This document shows positions 1-12,708 of a stretch of DNA of 12,708 nucleotides, piece after piece. The notes under the pieces were generated by a model. That model did not search any database and was not told where the DNA came from. It was given only the letters and a program-made list of their open reading frames with translations. The stretch is from positions 1 to 12,708 of IMG/VR virus record IMGVR_UViG_2548876945_000010, one strand, 5' to 3'. This DNA is from a virus. Its lineage: Duplodnaviria > Heunggongvirae > Uroviricota > Caudoviricetes. The first letter of the stretch is position 1. Every line of letters starts with the position of its first letter. Position numbers and translations under genes: made by a program.

Positions 1-996
1 TTATGGACGCATTATGGACATTCCTGACACCGGGTTAAGAGTCACAGCATCTTGTAAGAAATCCGGTGCAAAGTGTGCGTAGGTCATAGTTTGCTGAATG
101 TTAGAATGACCCAGGATGCGCTGCAATGTGATTATGTTACCTCCATTCATTATAAAATGTGTGGCAAATGTATGCCTCAAAACATGTACTGCTTGTCCGT
201 CAGGTAAATCGGGTTTTACTTCCCTGAGAGCGTTACGCACTTTGTAGTAACTGGCATTAAAAAGCCTGCCTGAATTTTTGGTCTTGATCCGTTTAATCAG
301 GTCCTGCGAAACGGGAATTGTCCTGCGTTTTCCGTTTTTAGTTTTCATAAACGTAACCATCTGGTTAATGATGTGTTCAGCTTTTAAATTAGACACTTCA
401 CTCCAGCGTCCACCAGTAGAAAGGCAGACCAGAGTTGCATTTAATTCATCACCATCAAGCATGGATAACAGCCGCGTAATCTCTTCACTGGACAAAAAAG
501 CCATTTCCGTAACAGCTTCACGTAACCGTTTAATCTCACGGAACGGGTTGTGGGAGTGGTATTCACCGGCGTCAATTAACTTGGTGAACATCCCGCTCAT
601 TATTGCCAGATGTCGATTTACGCTGGCTGGTTTTAGACCATCGTTCATCATTACAACGCGATAATCAGTTATCGTTTTCTTTGTTAGCTGGTCAGCTCTG
701 GACACTCCCATTTCTGCAAATTTGGCGATTATTGTCGTTAAACGCCCCCGTTCAATATCTCCACGCTCATGTGATTTTCCGTGATATATCCACCATCTAC
801 CTAACAACTCTGTAAGAGTTCGGCGGTCGGCTGGTTTCTCCAACCACTCTTTGTTGTGGTAGTTAACCAATACATGACGTTCGAATGCCTGAGCTTCACC
901 TTTAGTTTTAAATTTCCGCCTGATACGTTTTCCATCTGCACCCTGCGGTCTGACGTCCACTTCATAACGACCATCATCGAGCTTTTTAATAGACAT
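1..996 (-). CDS. int: tyrosine site-specific integrase (P2 Int-like)
   Basis: 331-aa ORF, ATG at 996..994, stop at 3..1. N-terminus MSIKKLDDGRYEVDVRP resembles P2-family integrases; C-terminal HVLRHTFATH ... LGHSNIQQTMTYAHF carries the His-x-x-Arg and catalytic Tyr motifs of tyrosine recombinases. GGAGGG Shine-Dalgarno lies upstream on the minus strand. Confidence 0.9.
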   Translation of the reverse strand: MSIKKLDDGRYEVDVRPQGADGKRIRRKFKTKGEAQAFERHVLVNYHNKEWLEKPADRRTLTELLGRWWIYHGKSHERGDIERGRLTTIIAKFAEMGVSRADQLTKKTITDYRVVMMNDGLKPASVNRHLAIMSGMFTKLIDAGEYHSHNPFREIKRLREAVTEMAFLSSEEITRLLSMLDGDELNATLVCLSTGGRWSEVSNLKAEHIINQMVTFMKTKNGKRRTIPVSQDLIKRIKTKNSGRLFNASYYKVRNALREVKPDLPDGQAVHVLRHTFATHFIMNGGNIITLQRILGHSNIQQTMTYAHFAPDFLQDAVTLNPVSGMSIMRP

Positions 997-3122: not shown

Positions 3123-3346
3123 TGCCGGACAACGTAGATTTTATTCAGGAACAACAGGCTGAATTACTGGAGCGTCAGATTAACGCGGCAAGGGTAAAAC
3201 ATTGCGGTGCTTCTGCGCTGGTTTGCGAAGAGTGTGACGCGCCAATACCTGCTGCCCGTCGTGCGGCTTATCCGTCAGCCACGCGTTGTGTTTCCTGCCA
3301 GTCAGTCTTTGAAGCAAAAAACAAGCATTACCGGAGAATGGCATGA
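3122..3346 (+). CDS. TraR/DksA-family C4 zinc-finger protein (position of P2 orf82)
   Basis: 74 aa with CxxC-(17)-CxxC (VCEECDAPIPAARRAAYPSATRCVSC) after a helical N-terminus, typical of the phage TraR/DksA zinc-finger family; AGGAG SD upstream. Confidence 0.75.
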   Translation: MPDNVDFIQEQQAELLERQINAARVKHCGASALVCEECDAPIPAARRAAYPSATRCVSCQSVFEAKNKHYRRMA

Positions 3347-3618
3347 GTATTCGTATCGAAATTGGCGAACGTTATGTCGTTACCAGTGACAGCTTTCAGT
3401 TTATTCTCCACGAGAAAAAGAGAGCGGAAAGCGGTAAAAACGCCGGTCAGGAATGGCTGGCGGTGGTTGGTTATTACCCGAAATTAAGCCAGCTCGTTTC
3501 CGGCCTGATGCATCACGATATTCTGACCGGAAGCGCAAAGTCTTTTGCTGATTTAAACGCGCAGGTTGAGCAACTCAGCAGGCGTTGTTCAGAGGCTTTT
3601 GGCTCATATGGCCGTTAA
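3343..3618 (+). CDS. hypothetical early protein (position of P2 orf83)
   Basis: ATG 3343 overlaps the previous stop (ATGA); 91 aa; 3' end overlaps the start of gene A. Confidence 0.5.
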   Translation: MSIRIEIGERYVVTSDSFQFILHEKKRAESGKNAGQEWLAVVGYYPKLSQLVSGLMHHDILTGSAKSFADLNAQVEQLSRRCSEAFGSYGR

Positions 3619-5779
3619 AGCCTCCGGGCGTTTTGTCCCTCCGTCAGCATTTGCCGCAGGCACCGGTAAGACGTTTGCCGGTGCTTATGCATGGAACGCG
3701 CCACGCGAGGCTGTCGGGCGCGAAAGACCCCTTACACGTGATGAGATGCGTCAGGTGCAAGGTGTTTTATCCACGATTAACCGCCTGCCTTACTTTTTGC
3801 GCTCGCTGTTTACTTCACGCTATGACTACATCCGGCGCAATAAAAGCCCGGTACACGGGTTTTATTTCCTCACATCCACTTTTCAGCGTCGTTTATGGCC
3901 GCGCATTGAGCGCGTGAATCAGCGCCATGAAATGAACACCGACGCGTCGTTGCTGTTTCTGGCAGAGCGCGACCAGTATGCGCGCCTGCCGGGGATGAAT
4001 GACAAGGAGCTGAAAAAGTTTGCCGCCCGTATCTCATCACAGCTTTTCATGATGTATGAGGAACTCTGCGATGCCTGGGTGGATGCGCATGGCGAGAAAG
4101 AATCGCTGTTTACGGATGATGCGCAGGCTCACCTCTATGGTCATGTTGCTGGCGCTGCACGTGCTTTCAATATTTCCCCGCTTTACTGGAAAAAATACCG
4201 TAAAGGACAGATGACCACGAGGCAGGCATATTCTGCAATTGCTCGTCTGTTTAACGATGAGTGGTGGACTCATCAGCTTAAAGGCCAGCGTATGCGCTGG
4301 CATGAAGCGTTACTGATAGCTGTCGGGGAGGTCAATAAAGACCGTTCTCCTTATGCCAGTAAACACGCCATTCGTGATGTGCGTGCGCGCCGCCAGGCAA
4401 ATCTGGAATTTCTTAAATCGTGTGACCTTGAAAACAGGGAAACCGGCGAGCGCATCGACCTTATCAGTAAGGTGATGGGCAGTATTTCTAATCCTGAAAT
4501 TCGCCGGATGGAGCTGATGAACACCATTGCCGGTATTGAGCGTTACGCCGCCGCAGAGGGTGATGTGGGGATGTTTATCACGCTGACCGCGCCGTCAAAG
4601 TATCACCCGACACGTCAGGTCAGAAAAGGCGAAAGTAAAACCGTTCAGCTTAATCACGGCTGGAACGATGAGGCATTTAATCCAAAGGATGCGCAGCGTT
4701 ATCTCTGCCGCATCTGGAGCCTGATGCGCACGGCATTCAAGGATAATGATTTACAGGTCTACGGTTTGCGTGTCGTCGAGCCACACCACGACGGAACGCC
4801 GCACTGGCATATGATGCTTTTTTGTAATCCACGCCAGCGTAACCAGATTATTGAAATCATGCGTCGCTACGCGCTCAAAGAGGATGGCGACGAAAGAGGA
4901 GCTGCGCGAAACCGTTTTCAGGCAAAACACCTTAACCGGGGCGGTGCTGCGGGGTATATCGCAAAATACATCTCAAAAAACATCGATGGCTATGCACTGG
5001 ATGGTCAGCTCGATAATGATACCGGCAGGCCGCTGAAAGATACTGCTGCGGCTGTTACCGCATGGGCGTCAACGTGGCGAATTCCGCAATTTAAAACGAT
5101 TGGCCTGCCGACAATGGGGGCTTACCGTGAACTACGCAAATTGCCTCGCGGCGTCAGTATTGCTGATGAGTTTGACGAACGCGTCGAGGCTGCTCGCGCT
5201 GCCGCAGACAGTGGTGATTTTGCGTTGTATATCAGCGCGCAGGGTGGGGCAAATGTCCCGCGCGATTGTCAGACTGTCAGGGTTGCCCGTAGCCCGTCGG
5301 ATGACGTTAACGAGTACGAGGAAGAAGTCGAGAGAGTGGTCGGCATTTACGCGCCGCATCTCGGCGCGCGTCATATTCATATCACCAGAACGACGGACTG
5401 GCGCATTGTGCCGAAAGTTCCGGTCGTTGAGCCTTTGACTTTAAAAAGCGGCATCGCCGCGCCTCGGAGTCCTGTCAATAACTGTGGAAAGTTCACCGGC
5501 GGTGACGTTCCGGTTATGCACCCTACACCGTCTGAGCATGCCGCAGCGGTGTTAAATCTGGTTGATAGTGGTGTTATCGGATGGGATGACCCGGAAGTTG
5601 TGACGGTGCTCAGGAGTGCATTAAAACATGGTGCACCGAGACCGAATTGGCAACAAAGAAACTGCGAACCATTAAAACCGTACCAGATAGCGCCATCAGG
5701 GCGGATGACAAAGGCTGAACGTTCGCAGATTCCACGCATCCATTTCGAGCTGGCACTAATTGGTAAAACCTATCAATAG
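3608..5779 (+). CDS. A: rolling-circle replication initiator endonuclease (P2 gpA-like, HUH superfamily)
   Basis: Large ORF; I place the start at ATG 3608 (MAVKASGRFVPP..., as I recall P2 A) rather than the track ATG 3566. It has an HUH-like motif PHWHMMLF (His codons 4802..4810) and the paired-tyrosine motif GYIAKYISK (Tyr codons 4955..4957 and 4967..4969), similar to phiX174 gpA YxxKY. Confidence 0.85.
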   Translation: MAVKASGRFVPPSAFAAGTGKTFAGAYAWNAPREAVGRERPLTRDEMRQVQGVLSTINRLPYFLRSLFTSRYDYIRRNKSPVHGFYFLTSTFQRRLWPRIERVNQRHEMNTDASLLFLAERDQYARLPGMNDKELKKFAARISSQLFMMYEELCDAWVDAHGEKESLFTDDAQAHLYGHVAGAARAFNISPLYWKKYRKGQMTTRQAYSAIARLFNDEWWTHQLKGQRMRWHEALLIAVGEVNKDRSPYASKHAIRDVRARRQANLEFLKSCDLENRETGERIDLISKVMGSISNPEIRRMELMNTIAGIERYAAAEGDVGMFITLTAPSKYHPTRQVRKGESKTVQLNHGWNDEAFNPKDAQRYLCRIWSLMRTAFKDNDLQVYGLRVVEPHHDGTPHWHMMLFCNPRQRNQIIEIMRRYALKEDGDERGAARNRFQAKHLNRGGAAGYIAKYISKNIDGYALDGQLDNDTGRPLKDTAAAVTAWASTWRIPQFKTIGLPTMGAYRELRKLPRGVSIADEFDERVEAARAAADSGDFALYISAQGGANVPRDCQTVRVARSPSDDVNEYEEEVERVVGIYAPHLGARHIHITRTTDWRIVPKVPVVEPLTLKSGIAAPRSPVNNCGKFTGGDVPVMHPTPSEHAAAVLNLVDSGVIGWDDPEVVTVLRSALKHGAPRPNWQQRNCEPLKPYQIAPSGRMTKAERSQIPRIHFELALIGKTYQ

Positions 5780-5882
5780 TGATTTAATGAAATTTCGGAG
5801 TCATAAATATTGTGTATTTAACTAGATGATTGCAATATAAGTGCTTATTATTTATGCGATTATAGCCATAACGGAGCTGAGT

Positions 5883-6812
5883 ATGAGTGTTGCAAGGCAT
5901 CATCATTTTTTATCCCAATGTTATTTGAAAGGGTTTACAAGTAATGGGGGGAAAAAATCAAAATTAACTGTAATAGATTTAAAGGAGCGCAAAACCTTTG
6001 AGAGTAATACTCGCAATGTCGGGGGGGTTAGAGATTTCAACCGATTAGAATTGGATGGAGTTGACCCAAACTATCTCGAGAGTTCTCTTGCAGAGTTTGA
6101 AGGCAGTGTCGCTACTCATTTAAGAAAACTTGAGGAGGGGGGCGAGTTTTCAGGCGAAACCAAAGATGTTATTCTGGAGTTTATTTCCTTATTGGCAATA
6201 CGTACGCCTGCTCAGCGAGAACATTTATCATCTCCATTGAAACAAATAGCAAAGTTTATCATGAAATCCTCAGTTAGTTCGGCTGAGCGTTGGGACGATT
6301 GCAAATTAGCTTATGAGAAAGAAATGGGTGAGTCTTTGCCATATGATCTCGCTTACGAAAAAATTAAAAATTTTGTGGATGGGGATAATTTCGAAATCAA
6401 TGTAATCAGAGAGTTCATGATAGATATGGAAATGAAATGTGTACCTGTTATCACCAAGTTGTTGCATCAACGCAACTGGTCTCTTATGACCATATCTGAT
6501 GGGCAAGGGTCATTTATAACTTCAGATAACCCAGTTTGCTTAATGTGGACTAATCCTGAATTAGCACGAGGCCCTTATTCCCCCGGGTTTGGTGTAAAAG
6601 ACACTTTAGTTTTGTTCCCAGTATCAAAAAACCTTCTTTTGGCGGGCGAGTTTGATGGTCATGAGGGTGTATTCAGTTGTAATGAGGAGCAGGCTGCGGT
6701 CTTCAATACTTCAGTCATTCGGCATACCGCAGAAAGAATATTTTCATCTAATGATAATTTCAAATTTTTAGACTCATCTAAAAAAATGAAGCAAGGCAAA
6801 AGCCTGGTTTGA
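5883..6812 (+). CDS. AT-rich cargo gene at the P2 tin/old hotspot; DUF4238-like candidate anti-phage defence protein
   Basis: 309-aa ORF from ATG 5883 (GGAG upstream; the track GTG at 5841 is less likely). N-terminus MSVARHHHFLSQCYLKGF fits the HHxxxQxYLKxF signature I associate with DUF4238. Strongly AT-rich unlike the flanking phage genes, and located between the A stop and cos. Confidence 0.65.
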   Translation: MSVARHHHFLSQCYLKGFTSNGGKKSKLTVIDLKERKTFESNTRNVGGVRDFNRLELDGVDPNYLESSLAEFEGSVATHLRKLEEGGEFSGETKDVILEFISLLAIRTPAQREHLSSPLKQIAKFIMKSSVSSAERWDDCKLAYEKEMGESLPYDLAYEKIKNFVDGDNFEINVIREFMIDMEMKCVPVITKLLHQRNWSLMTISDGQGSFITSDNPVCLMWTNPELARGPYSPGFGVKDTLVLFPVSKNLLLAGEFDGHEGVFSCNEEQAAVFNTSVIRHTAERIFSSNDNFKFLDSSKKMKQGKSLV

Positions 6813-7215: not shown

Positions 7216-8250
7216 TCAGCCGTTGTCAGTGTCCAGTGAGTAGTTTTTAAAGCGGATGACCTCCTGACCGAGCCAGCCGTTTATCTCGCGGATCCTGTCC
7301 TGTAACGGGATAAGCTCATTGCGGACAAAGACCTTTGCCACTTTCTCAATATCACCCAGCGACCCGACGTTCTCCGGCTTGCCGCCCATCAACTGAAAGG
7401 GGATGCGGTGCGCGTCCAGCAGGTCAGCGGCGCTGGCTTTTTTGATATTAAAAAAATCGTCCTTCGTTGCCACTTCACTGAGCGGGATAATTTTAATGCC
7501 GTCGGCTTTTCCCTGCGGGGCATAGAGAAACAGATTTTTAAAGTTGTTGCGGCCTTTCGACTTGACCATGTTTTCGCGAAGCATTTCGATATCGTTGCGA
7601 TCCTGCACGGCATCAGTGACGTACATGATGTATCCGGCATGTGCGCCGTTTTCGTAATACTTGCGGCGGAACAGCGTGGCTGACTCATTCAGCCAGGCAG
7701 AGTTAAGGGCGCTGAGATATTCCGGCATGCCGTACAGCTCCTGATTAATATCCGGCTCCAGCAGATGAAACACGGAGCCGGGCGCGAAAGGTGTCGGCTC
7801 GTTGAAGGACGGCACCCACCAGTAAACATCCTCCTCCACGCCACGGCGGGTATATTTTGCCGGTGAGGTTTCCAGTCTGATGACCTTACCGGTGGTGCTG
7901 TAACGCTTTTCCAGAAACGCATTACCGAACACCAGAAAATCCAGCGCAAAGCGGCTGAAATCCTGCTGGGAAAGCCACGGATGCGGGATAAATGTCGAGG
8001 CCAGAATATTACGTTTGACGTAAATCGGTGAGCTGTGATGCACGGCAGCACGCAGGCTTTTTGCCAGACCGGTAAAGCTGACCGGTGGCTCATACCATCT
8101 GCCGTTACTGATGCACTCGACGTAATCCAGAATGTCACGGCGGTCGAGTACCGGCACCGGCTCGCCAAAGGTGAATGCTTCCATTTTCGGGGCGTTGGCG
8201 GTCATTTTTTTTGCCGCAGGTTGCGGTGTTTTCCCTTTTTTCTTGCTCAT
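7216..8250 (-). CDS. Q: portal protein (P2 gpQ-like)
   Basis: 344-aa ORF, ATG at 8250..8248 with GGAG upstream, stop 7218..7216. Length equals P2 Q and it sits next to cos and the terminase gene; its start overlaps the P stop (TGATG). Confidence 0.9.
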   Translation of the reverse strand: MSKKKGKTPQPAAKKMTANAPKMEAFTFGEPVPVLDRRDILDYVECISNGRWYEPPVSFTGLAKSLRAAVHHSSPIYVKRNILASTFIPHPWLSQQDFSRFALDFLVFGNAFLEKRYSTTGKVIRLETSPAKYTRRGVEEDVYWWVPSFNEPTPFAPGSVFHLLEPDINQELYGMPEYLSALNSAWLNESATLFRRKYYENGAHAGYIMYVTDAVQDRNDIEMLRENMVKSKGRNNFKNLFLYAPQGKADGIKIIPLSEVATKDDFFNIKKASAADLLDAHRIPFQLMGGKPENVGSLGDIEKVAKVFVRNELIPLQDRIREINGWLGQEVIRFKNYSLDTDNG

Positions 8251-9311
8251 CAGTAAAACTCCAGAATGGTGGATGTCAGCGGGGTGCTGATACCGGCGGT
8301 GAGTGGCTCATTTAACAGGGCGTGCATGGTCGCCCAGGCGAGGTCGGCGTGGCTGGCTTCCTCGCTGCGGCTGGCCTCATAGGTGGCGCTGCGCCCGCTG
8401 CTGGTCATGGTCTTGCGGATAGCCATAAACGAGCTGGTGATGTCGGTGGCGCTGACGTCATATTCCAGACAGCCACGGCGGATAACGTCTTTTGCCTTGA
8501 GCACCATTGCGGTTTTCATTTCCGGCGTGTAGCGGATATCACGCGCGGCGGGATAGAACGAGCGCACGAGCTGGAACACGCCGACACCGAGGCCGGTGGC
8601 ATCAATACCGATGTATTCGACGTTATATTTTTCGGTGAGTTTGCGGATGGATTCCGCCTGGGTGGCAAAGTCCATACCTTTCCACTGGTGACGCTCAAGT
8701 ATTCTGAATTTGCCACCGGCCACCACCGGCGGTGCCAGTACCACGCATCCGGCGCTGTCGCCACGGTGTGACGGGTCGTAACCAATCCATACCGGTCGGG
8801 AGCCGAACGGATTTGCGGCAAACGGCGCATAGTCTTCCCATTCTTCCAGCGTGTCGACCATGCAGCGTTGCAGCTCCTCGAACGGGAATACCGATGCCTT
8901 GTCATCAACAAATTCACACATGAACAGGTTTTTAAAATCGTCGGCGCTGTTTTCGCGTTTAAGCTGCTCAATGTCGAACAATGTGCAGCCACCTTTCAGG
9001 GCGTCCTCAATGGTGACAATCTGCCGCCACTGGCCGTCCGCACAGAGAAGACCTCCGGCAAGGGCGTTATGACTGACGTCGATTTCCACGCGTTCGGCGG
9101 CGCTGGCGCGTCCCCGGTTGAACAGTTCACCTGACCAGAACGGGTAGGCGTCGTGCGCCAGCGTGGACGGGGTGGAGAAATAGGTCGAGCGCAGGTGACT
9201 CTGTGAGGCCATACCTGATGCCACCTTACGCAGTACCTGAAAAGCCGCGCTGCATCGTGAGTCAAATCTGATGAAGACCTTTGCGCTACAGGGCGACACG
9301 CTTGACGCCAT
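8250..9311 (-). CDS. P: terminase large subunit (P2 gpP-like), C-terminal portion only; N-terminal ATPase region apparently missing
   Basis: 353-aa ORF directly upstream of and coupled to Q. Contains VWIGYDPSHRGDSAGCVVL, like the start of a terminase nuclease domain; no Walker A (GxxxxGKT/S) is present. P2 P is about 590 aa as I recall, and the first ~15-20 codons of this ORF overlap the X gene on the opposite strand so are probably not P-derived. Confidence 0.6.
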   Translation of the reverse strand: MASSVSPCSAKVFIRFDSRCSAAFQVLRKVASGMASQSHLRSTYFSTPSTLAHDAYPFWSGELFNRGRASAAERVEIDVSHNALAGGLLCADGQWRQIVTIEDALKGGCTLFDIEQLKRENSADDFKNLFMCEFVDDKASVFPFEELQRCMVDTLEEWEDYAPFAANPFGSRPVWIGYDPSHRGDSAGCVVLAPPVVAGGKFRILERHQWKGMDFATQAESIRKLTEKYNVEYIGIDATGLGVGVFQLVRSFYPAARDIRYTPEMKTAMVLKAKDVIRRGCLEYDVSATDITSSFMAIRKTMTSSGRSATYEASRSEEASHADLAWATMHALLNEPLTAGISTPLTSTILEFY

Positions 9312-9474
9312 TTGTGTCCGGTATTACGGGCGCACTGAGGGCGTGGTTGAGACCGTGCTCGCCGCAAATCCGGGACTGGCTGAACTGGGTGCGGTGCTGC
9401 CACACGGCACCGCCGTCGAACTGCCCGACGTTCAGACCGCGCCCGTGGCTGAAACTGTCAATCTGTGGGAGTAA
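9271..9474 (+). CDS. X: tail protein X (P2 gpX-like, LysM-like)
   Basis: 67 aa, MKTFALQGDTLDAICVRYYGRTEGVVETVLAANPGL..., matching P2 X in length and sequence as recalled; immediately precedes the holin. Confidence 0.8.
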   Translation: MKTFALQGDTLDAICVRYYGRTEGVVETVLAANPGLAELGAVLPHGTAVELPDVQTAPVAETVNLWE

Positions 9475-9477
9475 CGC

Positions 9478-9759
9478 ATGACAGCAGAAGAAAAAAGCGT
9501 CCTGTCGCTTTTCATGATTGGGGTGCTGATTGTTGTCGGCAAGGTGCTTGCCGGTGGTGAACCCATCACCCCGCGTCTGTTTATCGGGCGCATGTTGCTC
9601 GGTGGTTTTGTCTCGATGGTTGCCGGTGTTGTTCTGGTGCAGTTTCCTGACCTGTCACTGCCTGCGGTGTGCGGTATCGGCTCCATGCTGGGTATCGCCG
9701 GTTATCAGGTGATTGAGATTGCCATTCAGCGCCGCTTTAAGGGTAGGGGGAAACCGTAA
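9478..9759 (+). CDS. Y: holin (P2 gpY-like)
   Basis: 93 aa with hydrophobic transmembrane segments (LSLFMIGVLIVVGKVLAGG, LLGGFVSMVAGVVLV, GIGSMLGIAGY) and a charged C-terminal tail; stop overlaps the K start (TAATG). Confidence 0.8.
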   Translation: MTAEEKSVLSLFMIGVLIVVGKVLAGGEPITPRLFIGRMLLGGFVSMVAGVVLVQFPDLSLPAVCGIGSMLGIAGYQVIEIAIQRRFKGRGKP

Positions 9760-10256
9760 TGCCGGTTATTAACACGCATCAGAATATCGCCGCCTTTCTC
9801 GACATGCTGGCCGTGTCCGAAGGGACGGCAAACCATCCGCTGACGAAAAACCGGGGCTATGACGTGATAGTCACCGGACTGGACGGGAAGCCGGAAATTT
9901 TCACCGACTACAGTGACCACCCGTTCGCACATGGCCGACCGGCGAAGGTGTTTAACCGTCGCGGTGAAAAATCCACGGCCTCCGGTCGCTATCAGCAGCT
10001 TTACCTGTTCTGGCCGCATTACCGCAAACAGCTTGCCCTGCCGGATTTCAGTCCGTTGTCACAGGACAGACTTGCCATTCAGTTGATCCGCGAACGCGGT
10101 GCACTGGATGACATCCGGGCGGGACGCATTGAGCGAGCCATTTCACGCTGTCGCAATATCTGGGCGTCCCTGCCGGGTGCCGGTTACGGTCAGCGTGAGC
10201 ATTCACTGGAAAAACTGGTCACCGTCTGGCGTACCGCTGGCGGCGTACCGGCTTAA
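9759..10256 (+). CDS. K: endolysin (P2 gpK, lambda R-like lytic transglycosylase/lysozyme)
   Basis: 165 aa; FLDMLAVSEGT...GYDVIV...FTDYSDHP...SGRYQ...GALDDIRAGRIERAISRCRNIWASLPGAGYGQ closely parallels lambda R (FLDMLAWSEGTD...IWASLPGAGYGQ) as I recall it. Confidence 0.9.
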   Translation: MPVINTHQNIAAFLDMLAVSEGTANHPLTKNRGYDVIVTGLDGKPEIFTDYSDHPFAHGRPAKVFNRRGEKSTASGRYQQLYLFWPHYRKQLALPDFSPLSQDRLAIQLIRERGALDDIRAGRIERAISRCRNIWASLPGAGYGQREHSLEKLVTVWRTAGGVPA

Positions 10257-10270
10257 ACGGAGTAAACACC

Positions 10271-10696
10271 ATGAAGAAATTATCCCTTTCACTGATGCTG
10301 AACGTGTCGCTGGCGCTGATGCTGGCACTGTCCCTGATTTACCCGCAGAGCGTGGCCGTCAATTTTGTCGCCGCCTGGGCGATTCTGGCGACGGTTATCT
10401 GTGTGGTTGCCGGTGGTGTCGGCGTGTATGCCACTGAGTATGTGCTGGAACGCTACGGGCGGGAGCTGCCGCCGGAATCGCTGGCCGTGAAGATTGTCAC
10501 GTCGCTGTTTTTGCAGCCGGTGCCGTGGCGCAGACGGGCGGTGGCTCTGGTGGTGATGGTGGCGACGTTTATCTCGCTGGTCGCTGCCGGGTGGATTTTT
10601 ACCGCGCTGATTTATCTCGTGGCGTCGGTGTTCTTCCGGCTGATACGTACGGCCTGCCGTCAGCGTTTTGAGGGGCGGGAACCATGTCAAAGCTGA
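10271..10696 (+). CDS. lysA: LysA-like membrane protein (lysis timing)
   Basis: 141 aa with several hydrophobic helices; position and length match P2 lysA. Confidence 0.7.
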   Translation: MKKLSLSLMLNVSLALMLALSLIYPQSVAVNFVAAWAILATVICVVAGGVGVYATEYVLERYGRELPPESLAVKIVTSLFLQPVPWRRRAVALVVMVATFISLVAAGWIFTALIYLVASVFFRLIRTACRQRFEGREPCQS

Positions 10697-11109
10697 TGAT
10701 TGTGATGGTTGTGCTGTTATCGCTGGCGGTGGCGGGGCTGTTTCTGGTGAAGCATGAAAACGCCAGCCTGCGCGCCTCGCTGGACAGGGCGAACAACGTC
10801 GCCAGCGGGCAGCAGACGACCATCACCATGCTGCAAAATCAGCTTCATGTTGCCATCACCAGGGCAGACAAAAACGAGCTGGCGCAGGTGGCACTGCGTC
10901 AGGAACTGGAGAACGCCGCGAAGCGTGAAGCACAGCGCGAGAAAACCATCACGAGGTTACTTAATGAAAACGAAGATTTTCGCCGCTGGTACGGTGCTGA
11001 CCTGCCTGATGCTGTGCGCCGGTTGCACCAGCGCCCCGCCTGCACTGACGCCAGTGATTGTCGCCAACGCCTGCCCGAAAGTGAGCCTTTGCCCGATGCC
11101 GGGCAGTGA
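10684..11109 (+). CDS. lysB: LysB, Rz-like inner-membrane spanin
   Basis: 141 aa; N-terminal TM helix (LMIVMVVLLSLAVAGLFLV) followed by a charged, predicted coiled-coil region; contains the embedded +1-frame lysC gene. Confidence 0.75.
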   Translation: MSKLMIVMVVLLSLAVAGLFLVKHENASLRASLDRANNVASGQQTTITMLQNQLHVAITRADKNELAQVALRQELENAAKREAQREKTITRLLNENEDFRRWYGADLPDAVRRLHQRPACTDASDCRQRLPESEPLPDAGQ

Positions 11110-11152
11110 CCCGCAGACGAACGGCGATTTAAGTGCCGATAAGCGGAATTAA
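10964..11152 (+). CDS. lysC: LysC, Rz1-like outer-membrane lipoprotein spanin
   Basis: 62-aa ORF starting inside lysB in another frame; signal peptide plus lipobox (MKTKIFAAGTVLTCLMLCAGC) and a Pro-rich mature part. Confidence 0.7.
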   Translation: MKTKIFAAGTVLTCLMLCAGCTSAPPALTPVIVANACPKVSLCPMPGSDPQTNGDLSADKRN

Positions 11153-11414
11153 AACGGCCAGCGTGACGGCTTCTGATTCTGTTACTGCCACGGTGCCGGT
11201 GGTCATGGTGAAAGCATCAACCCGCGTCACCCTGGACACACCGGAGGTGGTCTGCACCAACAGGCTGATTACCGGCACGCTGGAAGTGCAGAAGGGCGGG
11301 ACGATGCGCGGCAACATTGAACACACCGGCGGTGAACTCTCATCAAACGGTAAGGTACTGCATACCCATAAACACCCCGGTGACAGTGGCGGCACAACAG
11401 GGGGACCTCTATGA
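11153..11414 (+). pseudogene. V: remnant of baseplate spike gene V (C-terminal fragment only)
   Basis: Only about 260 bp separate lysC from W, where P2 has R, S and V (about 1.5 kb). The ORF ends ...NGKVLHTHKHPGDSGGTTGGPL, which I tentatively recognise as a gpV-type His-rich C-terminal apex, and its stop overlaps the W start (ATGA). Confidence 0.4.
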
Positions 11415-11758
11415 CAGCGCGTTATCTCGGAATGAATCGCAGTGATGGCCTGACTGTCACTGACCTTGAGCATATCAGCCAGAGTATCGGCGATATCCTG
11501 CGCACACCGGTCGGCTCACGGGTGATGCGTCGTGATTACGGCTCGTTGCTGGCGTCAATGATTGACCAGCCGCAGACCCCGGCGCTTGAGTTGCAGATTA
11601 AAGTCGCCTGTTACATGGCAGTGCTGAAATGGGAACCCCGCGTCACCCTGTCATCCGTCACCACGGCGCGCAGTTTTGACGGGCGAATGACGGTCACGTT
11701 AACCGGCCAGCACAACGACACCGGCCAGCCACTTTCGTTAACCATCCCTGTGAGTTGA
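11411..11758 (+). CDS. W: baseplate wedge protein W (gp25-like)
   Basis: 115 aa (same as P2 W), MTARYLGMNRSDGLTVTDLEHISQSIGDILRTPVGSRVMRRDYGS..., a GPW/gp25-family pattern. Confidence 0.85.
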   Translation: MTARYLGMNRSDGLTVTDLEHISQSIGDILRTPVGSRVMRRDYGSLLASMIDQPQTPALELQIKVACYMAVLKWEPRVTLSSVTTARSFDGRMTVTLTGQHNDTGQPLSLTIPVS

Positions 11759-11762
11759 AACC

Positions 11763-11897
11763 ATGCCGATTATCGACCTGAACCAGCTACCCGCACCGGA
11801 TGTGGTCGAGGAGCTGGACTTTGAAACCATTCTTGCTGAACGCAAGGCGACACTGATTTCCCTTTACCGAATACAGCGTCGTGACCGGAGGCTCTGA
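11763..11897 (+). pseudogene. J: baseplate protein J, internally deleted/truncated (44 codons)
   Basis: ATG 11763 encodes MPIIDLNQLPAPDVVEELDFETILAERKATLISLY... (J-like N-terminus) but stops at 11895..11897, overlapping the I start (TGATG); P2 J is about 302 aa as recalled. Below the ORF-track length cutoff, found by reading. Confidence 0.5.
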
Positions 11898-12508
11898 TGA
11901 GTGATTCGCGACTGCTGCCGACCGGCTCATCACCGCTTGAAGTCGCTGCCGCAAAAGCCTGTGCGGAAATTGAAAAAACGCCGGTCAGTATTCGTGAGCC
12001 GTGGAACCCGGACACCTGCCCGGCAAATCTGCTGCCGTGGCTGGCGTGGTCATTTTCGGTTGACCGCTGGGATGATAAGTGGCCGGAAGCGACAAAACGC
12101 GCTGTTATCCGCGATGCGTATTTCATTCACTGCCATAAGGGCACTATAGGCGCAATCCGGCGTGTGGTGGAGCCGCTCGGCTATCTGATTGAGGTGAGGG
12201 AGTGGTGGCAGCTCAACGAGGAGCCGGGGACGTTCCGGATCGTTGTTGGCGTGCTTGAGCAGGGTATTACCGAGGAAATGTATCAGGAGCTGGAGCGCCT
12301 CGTTGCTGATGCAAAACCGGCAAGCCGCCATCTGACGGGACTGGCTATCAGTTTAAGTACAACCGGCAACATTTTTGCCGGTGCGGAATGCTATCACGGT
12401 GACGCCCTGACGGTTTATCCCTACACCCCGGAGGCCATTATTGTCGGAGGGGATTATTTCCCGGCCTCGGCCATTCATTTAATTGATAACCTGAGAGTAA
12501 ACGCATGA
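11897..12508 (+). CDS. I: baseplate assembly protein I
   Basis: 203-aa ORF, MSDSRLLPTGSSPLEVAAAKACAEIEKTPVSIREPWNPDTCPANLLPWLAWSFSVDRWDD..., in the P2 I position; stop overlaps the H start (ATGA). Confidence 0.8.
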   Translation: MSDSRLLPTGSSPLEVAAAKACAEIEKTPVSIREPWNPDTCPANLLPWLAWSFSVDRWDDKWPEATKRAVIRDAYFIHCHKGTIGAIRRVVEPLGYLIEVREWWQLNEEPGTFRIVVGVLEQGITEEMYQELERLVADAKPASRHLTGLAISLSTTGNIFAGAECYHGDALTVYPYTPEAIIVGGDYFPASAIHLIDNLRVNA

Positions 12509-12708
12509 CAGTGAAATACTACGCCATTCTGACTAATCAGGGCGCAGCACGGCTGGCTAACGCGACGATGCTCGGCAGTAAGCTGAATCTGACGCAAATG
12601 GCCGTTGGTGATGCGAATGGTGTCTTGCCGACACCAGACCCGGCACAGACAAAACTGATTAACCAGAAACGCATCGCGCTGAACCGCCCCGGGAATCCTG
12701 GAGACTAA
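12505..12708 (+). CDS. H: tail fibre protein H, N-terminal segment only (ORF stops after 67 codons at the window end)
   Basis: N-terminus ...TQMAVGDANGVLPTPDPAQTKLI resembles the conserved tail-fibre N-terminal domain (P2 H ...TTMAVGDGGGKLPVPDAGQTGLI). P2 H is about 669 aa, but here a TAA at 12706..12708 ends the frame. Confidence 0.6.
   Translation: MTVKYYAILTNQGAARLANATMLGSKLNLTQMAVGDANGVLPTPDPAQTKLINQKRIALNRPGNPGD

Follow-up and report, generated by a model that had tools for sequence, protein, structure and literature searches.

Phage P2 and its Peduovirus relatives carry a late region in the order lysA-lysB-lysC-R-S-V-W-J-I-H, as in Escherichia phage pro483 and the GPEC1209 prophage of E. 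coli, and their functional late set consists of Q, P, O, N, M, L, X, Y, K, lysABC, R, S, V, W, J, I, H, G, FI, FII, E, T, U, and D. The V product of P2, gpV, has a native start codon, an N-terminal OB-fold (PF04717), an intertwined beta-helix, and an HxH Fe cage (H197/H199). It is through the OB-fold that the spike docks onto the tube and baseplate. Cryptic E. coli prophages are the other described systems closest to the locus reported here. They carry multiple short-microhomology deletions together with an insertion sequence (IS), are inherited vertically within a lineage, and keep regulatory, replication, and moron genes while structural genes are lost.

We analyzed a stretch of 12,708 nucleotides, called the window below, in which the segment between lysC and W is much shorter than in the Peduovirus references. 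A preliminary description had reported the loss of R, S, and most of V from this segment. The loss is real, but that description missed that lysC is truncated as well and that the same element carries two further deletions and an IS629 insertion in H. Very probably, a single microhomology-mediated event in a defective P2-like prophage produced the segment as a deletion scar and left a nonfunctional remnant of V. The feature is ordinary prophage decay and not a new kind of system. It shows no difference in kind from other cryptic E. coli prophages, and its set of scars is specific to about 30 assemblies, including strain H383. The 12.7-kb element is accordingly a dead P2-like prophage rather than a compact or unusual phage, and it would mislead prophage predictors or readers that take the window for a phage genome.

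Gene order and intact relatives of the element

The open reading frame (ORF) map and the sequence gave a P2-like gene order across the window. The integrase gene int (1-996, minus strand) is followed downstream by C, cox, B, A, a moron, Q, a shortened P, X, Y, K, lysA, lysB, and lysC. Past lysC lie a 93-codon ORF, W, a 44-codon ORF, I, and a 67-codon ORF that closes the window. Phage pro483 (L001) aligned to the window with 98.2% identity over 100% of the window, and the GPEC1209 prophage (L002) aligned with 99.9% identity, in each case as four collinear pieces. These pieces span about 19 to 20 kb in either reference, which leaves three clean BLAST breaks, and the flanks of the lysC-W scar are 96 to 99.9% identical to the references at the nucleotide level on either side. 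By identity and synteny, the window belongs with the P2-like phages. In the complete E. coli set, three genomes were at least 99% identical to the whole window, and all three had the intact 19.9-kb layout.

Unlike the Peduovirus references, the window is without the 3' end of lysC, R, S, and V codons 1 to 121, and it is also without O, N, M, L, half of P, and most of J, with H interrupted by IS629. Set against the functional late set, the element is incomplete: O, N, M, nearly all of L, R, and S are gone, and P, lysC, V, J, and H are truncated. The integrase adjoins pflA in every relative that we fetched, intact or degraded, and the same integrase at the same pflA-adjacent site is found in thousands of E. 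coli contigs. An integrase look-up returned 13,402 blocks, which are very common pflA-adjacent P2-like prophages, and it did not single out the scar carriers.

The moron between A and the portal gene Q (5841-6812, plus strand) encodes a DUF4238 protein that matches the PADLOC defense model 'DUF4238-Pers' end to end (E = 1.8e-219) and is intact. As is usual in such decay, genes for immunity and replication and a defense-type moron have outlived the virion genes of the element.

The lysC-V junction and the gpV fragment

Three-way alignment against the two reference flanks, together with the BLAST coordinates, placed the junction of the lysC-W deletion, which we call deletion B, at 11140..11141. 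Window positions 9242-11141 correspond to L001 143-2042, and window positions 11137-11868 correspond to L001 3455-4186. The junction fuses lysC codon 60 to V codon 121/122. In the three-way alignment, the exact microhomology at the junction is 2 bp (TA), and the two flanks, CGATA and CGGTA, are identical at 4 of 5 positions. Both the deletion and its endpoints are direct observations from these alignments. The missing DNA amounts to 1,417 bp relative to pro483 and 2,186 bp relative to GPEC1209, which has an extra moron between S and V, so the length of deletion B is a reference-dependent range of 1.4 to 2.2 kb. By the annotations of intact relatives and the translations, lysC has lost its last 37 codons and V its codons 1 to 121, and everything between the two genes (R, S, and the S-V intergenic region) is missing.

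The truncated lysC (10964..11152, plus strand) encodes an Rz1-like o-spanin. Compared with the 96-aa LysC of L002, its product has 62 aa, made up of 59 native residues followed by K-R-N, and the 37 C-terminal residues are lost. The Pfam LysC family (PF23793) covers only profile positions 1 to 42 of 69, and the gene does not encode the full-length 96-aa LysC lipoprotein. The preliminary description had placed the lysC stop at 11152 and the W start about 260 bp further on. The lysC-frame stop does lie at 11150-11152, W begins at 11411, and 258 bp separate them. The stop is not that of native lysC, however, since it was made by the junction, three codons beyond it, and lysC itself is truncated.

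The deletion of the tail-completion genes R and S from this position, also claimed in the preliminary description, is borne out by the comparison with pro483 and GPEC1209. The idea that R and S had been relocated elsewhere in the window was rejected, because tblastn searches of the whole window with R, S, and the V N terminus found no copy elsewhere; V residues 1 to 121, used as a tblastn query, likewise gave no significant match in the window.

What remains of V, designated V' (11142..11414, plus strand), comprises gpV residues 122 to 211, and this identity is established by structure and family matches. The ORF as called mechanically runs from a GTG start at 11133 to 11414 and has 93 aa, residues 2 to 93 of which correspond to gpV 120-211; gene callers mostly begin V' at the ATG at 11205, which gives 69 aa. 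The Protein Data Bank matches of the ORF were 3qr8_A (full length) and the C-terminal constructs 3qr7 and 3aqj, with E values of about 1e-52 to 1e-51, and over residues 122 to 211 V' is about 97% identical to the crystallized P2 gpV. The triple-stranded beta-helical domain Phage_spike (PF18715) was matched over its full 53-position profile (E = 4.3e-30), and the GpV Apex family (PF18946) scored 21.4 bits against a cutoff of 20.8. In the Pfam search, the OB-fold family Phage_base_V (PF04717) was absent from the V' ORF but present in the full-length V of L002. A gpV-type spike is thus represented by its beta-helix and its HxH Apex and lacks its N-terminal OB-fold.

The His-rich string near the end of the ORF had been assigned tentatively to the gpV apex. 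This assignment was correct: aligned to 3qr8, HTHKH corresponds to gpV H195, H197, and H199, the H-K-H codons for His197 and His199 lie at 11367..11375 (plus strand), and the PF18946 match agrees. In the work on the P2 spike, His197 and His199 form the Fe-coordinating HxH cage, and the Apex comprises residues 191 to 211 (bioRxiv 10.1101/2023.02.25.529910). V has lost 121 of its 211 residues (~57%), and the 90 residues kept form a complete needle-plus-apex module that shares the intertwined beta-helix and the HxH Fe cage of P2 gpV. Unlike P2 gpV, V' has neither the OB-fold nor its own start codon, and its upstream region is gone too. The calls 'lysC' and 'V' in the window are truncated pseudogenes. 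An antisense ORF of 114 aa (11129-11473) was regarded as incidental to V/W coding.

Immediately beyond V', W (11411..11758, plus strand) is intact and encodes a gp25-like baseplate wedge protein (Pfam GPW_gp25); at 115 aa, it is as long as its counterparts in L001 and L002. The overlap of the V' stop with the W start by ATGA (11411-11414) is kept, as had been noted earlier.

Further lesions and the carriers of the scars

Besides deletion B, the element has at least three other inactivating lesions: deletions A and C and the IS629 insertion in H. Deletion A removed 4,267 bp, with a junction at 9242-9243 and a microhomology of AA. Lost with it are O, N, and M, the 5' end of P, the intergenic region between P and O, and nearly all of L, whose final 32 bases are now joined to the C-terminal half of P at a point 28 bp upstream of the X start. 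The resulting P' remnant of the terminase large subunit (8250..9243, minus strand) matches Terminase_6N partially and Terminase_6C completely in Pfam, and by alignment it keeps the C-terminal ~326 of 590 residues, with the N-terminal ~264 gone. The mechanical P' ORF (8250-9311, minus strand) encodes 353 aa with a chimeric N terminus. Searches of the window with tblastn found no copy of O, N, or M elsewhere.

Deletion C removed 767 bp, out of frame, from inside J, with the microhomology TACC at 11865-11868. BLAST, alignment, and translation define the J' remnant (11763..11897, plus strand) as 35 native N-terminal codons with a frameshifted tail, a 44-codon ORF whose stop overlaps the I start. 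I itself (11897..12508, plus strand), a baseplate/tail protein, is intact (Pfam Tail_P2_I, E = 4e-55). The last remnant, H' of the tail-fiber gene (12505..12708, plus strand), has 58 native codons up to 12679, where similarity to L002 stops, followed by the first 29 nucleotides of IS629 (12680-12708), which include a stop. The complete element is seen in another carrier, L003 (10918-12227), as 1,310 bp with a 3-bp target duplication (CGC/CGC). It is 97.9% identical to annotated IS629, and the features of this IS3 family member are present: the 1,310-bp length, inverted repeats beginning TGAACCGCCCCGGG, and two transposase ORFs (HTH_Tnp_1 and rve). Beyond IS629 in L003 lie the rest of H, G, an invertase gene, FI, FII, E, T, and U, including the sheath, tube, and tape-measure genes.

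With deletions A and C and the insertion in H added to deletion B, the element cannot make heads, baseplates, complete tails, or fibers. The expectation in the preliminary description that tail function is abolished is therefore true but adds little, since heads, baseplates, and fibers would be impossible anyway.

The intact W and I, the ATGA coupling of V' to W, and the intact sheath, tube, tape-measure, and U genes downstream in L003 could also be read as a naturally compact, functional tail module, in a lineage for which R, S, and the spike OB-fold are dispensable or encoded elsewhere. The preliminary description had named functional phages with the same compact arrangement as the finding that would overturn its reading. 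With window positions 11050-11500 as the query, none of 150 matching phage records spanned the junction; the best records covered 81% of the query and began exactly at 11137. The compact junction was also not found in the complete E. coli set, where 1,587 genomes matched and the best-ranked matches stopped at the junction. Moreover, the capsid, scaffold, and small terminase genes, the ATPase half of the terminase, and most of J are lost, H is split by IS629, and neither R, S, nor the V N terminus turned up elsewhere in the window. Truncation of lysC by the same event marks the deletion as accidental. The compact-module reading is effectively refuted, and we give it next to no probability.

The absence of the junction from complete RefSeq E. 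coli genomes and from phage records also bears on whether the scar is an artefact of assembly or sequencing, in which the contig skipped about 1.4 kb and lysC-R-S-V is really intact. The exact 37-nucleotide junction pattern had no match in species-representative genomes or in viral contigs either, but the genome collection scanned holds one genome per species, so that this absence is uninformative. Against an artefact, the scar junctions were present in all eight carrier contigs that we fetched from NCBI and Logan assemblies, wherever the contig spans them. Identical junctions thus occur in at least eight independently assembled contigs from different projects and assemblers, one of them 5.0 Mb long, and the alignments run uninterrupted across the junctions, with extra breaks elsewhere in L004. 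One contig, AIBB01000025.1, is 100% identical to the window and ends at IS629, as other draft contigs do. Scar-specific products were found on about 30 contigs (J' on 30 and the 69-aa V' on 31), all labeled E. coli, for example strain H383; the 44-aa J' product accounted for 55 blocks in the assembly collection. The 2-bp microhomology is also far below any assembler k-mer. An artefact has virtually no chance of being the explanation, and because the same scars recur in about 30 public E. coli assemblies, including H383, they are inherited. Some carriers have decayed further, with K and I split in L003 and A and P disrupted in L004. The scar set is a heritable state of a small, still-decaying E. 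coli lineage, and the three deletions with the H insertion could serve to mark an E. coli clade that includes strain H383.

One carrier, L007 (Logan ERR10781527), has all of the scars, and 60 of its 62 mismatches to the window are clustered in gene A, at the equivalent of window positions 3175-5314. This cluster suggests a recombination patch from another P2-like phage.

Expression, origin, and ancestry of the scar

We infer a RecA-independent origin for the deletions because each of the three junctions carries a microhomology of 2 to 4 bp. Illegitimate recombination or replication slippage of this kind would have joined lysC to V across the TA, stripping the spanin C terminus, R, S, the S-V region with any moron in it, and the spike OB-fold from the element. 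The cryptic prophage is inherited vertically within a small E. coli lineage.

P2 has late promoters ahead of V and, within the P-O intergenic region, upstream of O. From this biology and the deletion of the S-V and P-O regions, the element is expected to have lost both the V and the O late promoters. An Ogr-type TGT-N12-ACA late-promoter dyad, sought in the S-V spacer of pro483, gave no confident assignment there, and the loss of the V late promoter rests on published P2 biology. A promoter scan found no sigma-70-like promoter in 9000-12708, and the eight terminator-like matches in this interval all fall within coding regions. By our own reading of the sequence, both candidate starts of V', GTG 11133 and ATG 11205, have a poor ribosome-binding context. 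With the late promoters gone, no sigma-70-like site, and poor candidate starts, we infer that the V' fragment is most likely silent and inert.

Several features could instead suggest that V' was exapted, that is, that the needle and perhaps W and I are expressed and have been retained for some use, such as that of a dominant-negative decoy. V' falls within the crystallized C-terminal gpV constructs (3qr7 and 3aqj), its frame is open with two possible starts, and the element keeps its intact defense-type DUF4238 moron. The counterpoint to decay extends to W, I, X, Y, K, lysA, and lysB, which, like the V' frame, are still intact in the window. However, the region has no promoter-like site, the V and O late promoters would lie in the deleted DNA, both candidate starts are poorly placed for ribosome binding, and neighboring genes are still gaining lesions in other carriers. 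There are only about 30 carriers and they are nearly identical, so the intact genes are explained more simply by recent decay than by retention, and in so few and nearly clonal carriers an open frame is no evidence of selection. We consider exaptation very unlikely. Its most specific form, in which the gpV(122-211) needle, with W and I, would be a decoy disturbing baseplate assembly of incoming P2-like phages, appears more improbable still, and no finding supports it. Such a decoy, if true, would be a fragment of a structural protein exapted for superinfection exclusion.

The V'-W-J' segment (11140-11868) is 98.2% identical to GPEC1209 and 99.7% identical to EC50, and the rest of the window is 99.9% identical to GPEC1209. 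These identities indicate a baseplate segment of mosaic ancestry. With this split in identity, GPEC1209 is not taken as the exact ancestor, so the deleted length is given as 1.4 to 2.2 kb and the four lesions are listed in no order of time.

The spot between S and V differs among relatives. In GPEC1209 it holds a 741-bp plus-strand ORF (L002 31414-32154), in EC50 it holds a 786-bp minus-strand ORF (L021 2274-3059), and in pro483 it has no cargo gene (L001 3030-3097). The cargo genes are annotated as hypothetical proteins. The S-V intergenic spot appears to be a variable moron slot in P2-like prophages.

A different E. coli strain, represented by L016 (GCA_949281605.1), carries the same integrase by pflA with a different and much larger deletion. 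There, a chimeric product of 305 aa (L016 6472-7389) runs from a tail-fiber assembly gene into a DUF5405 gene, and gene A, the head genes, and the baseplate genes are no longer called. Decay at the pflA locus therefore appears to be recurrent and independent.
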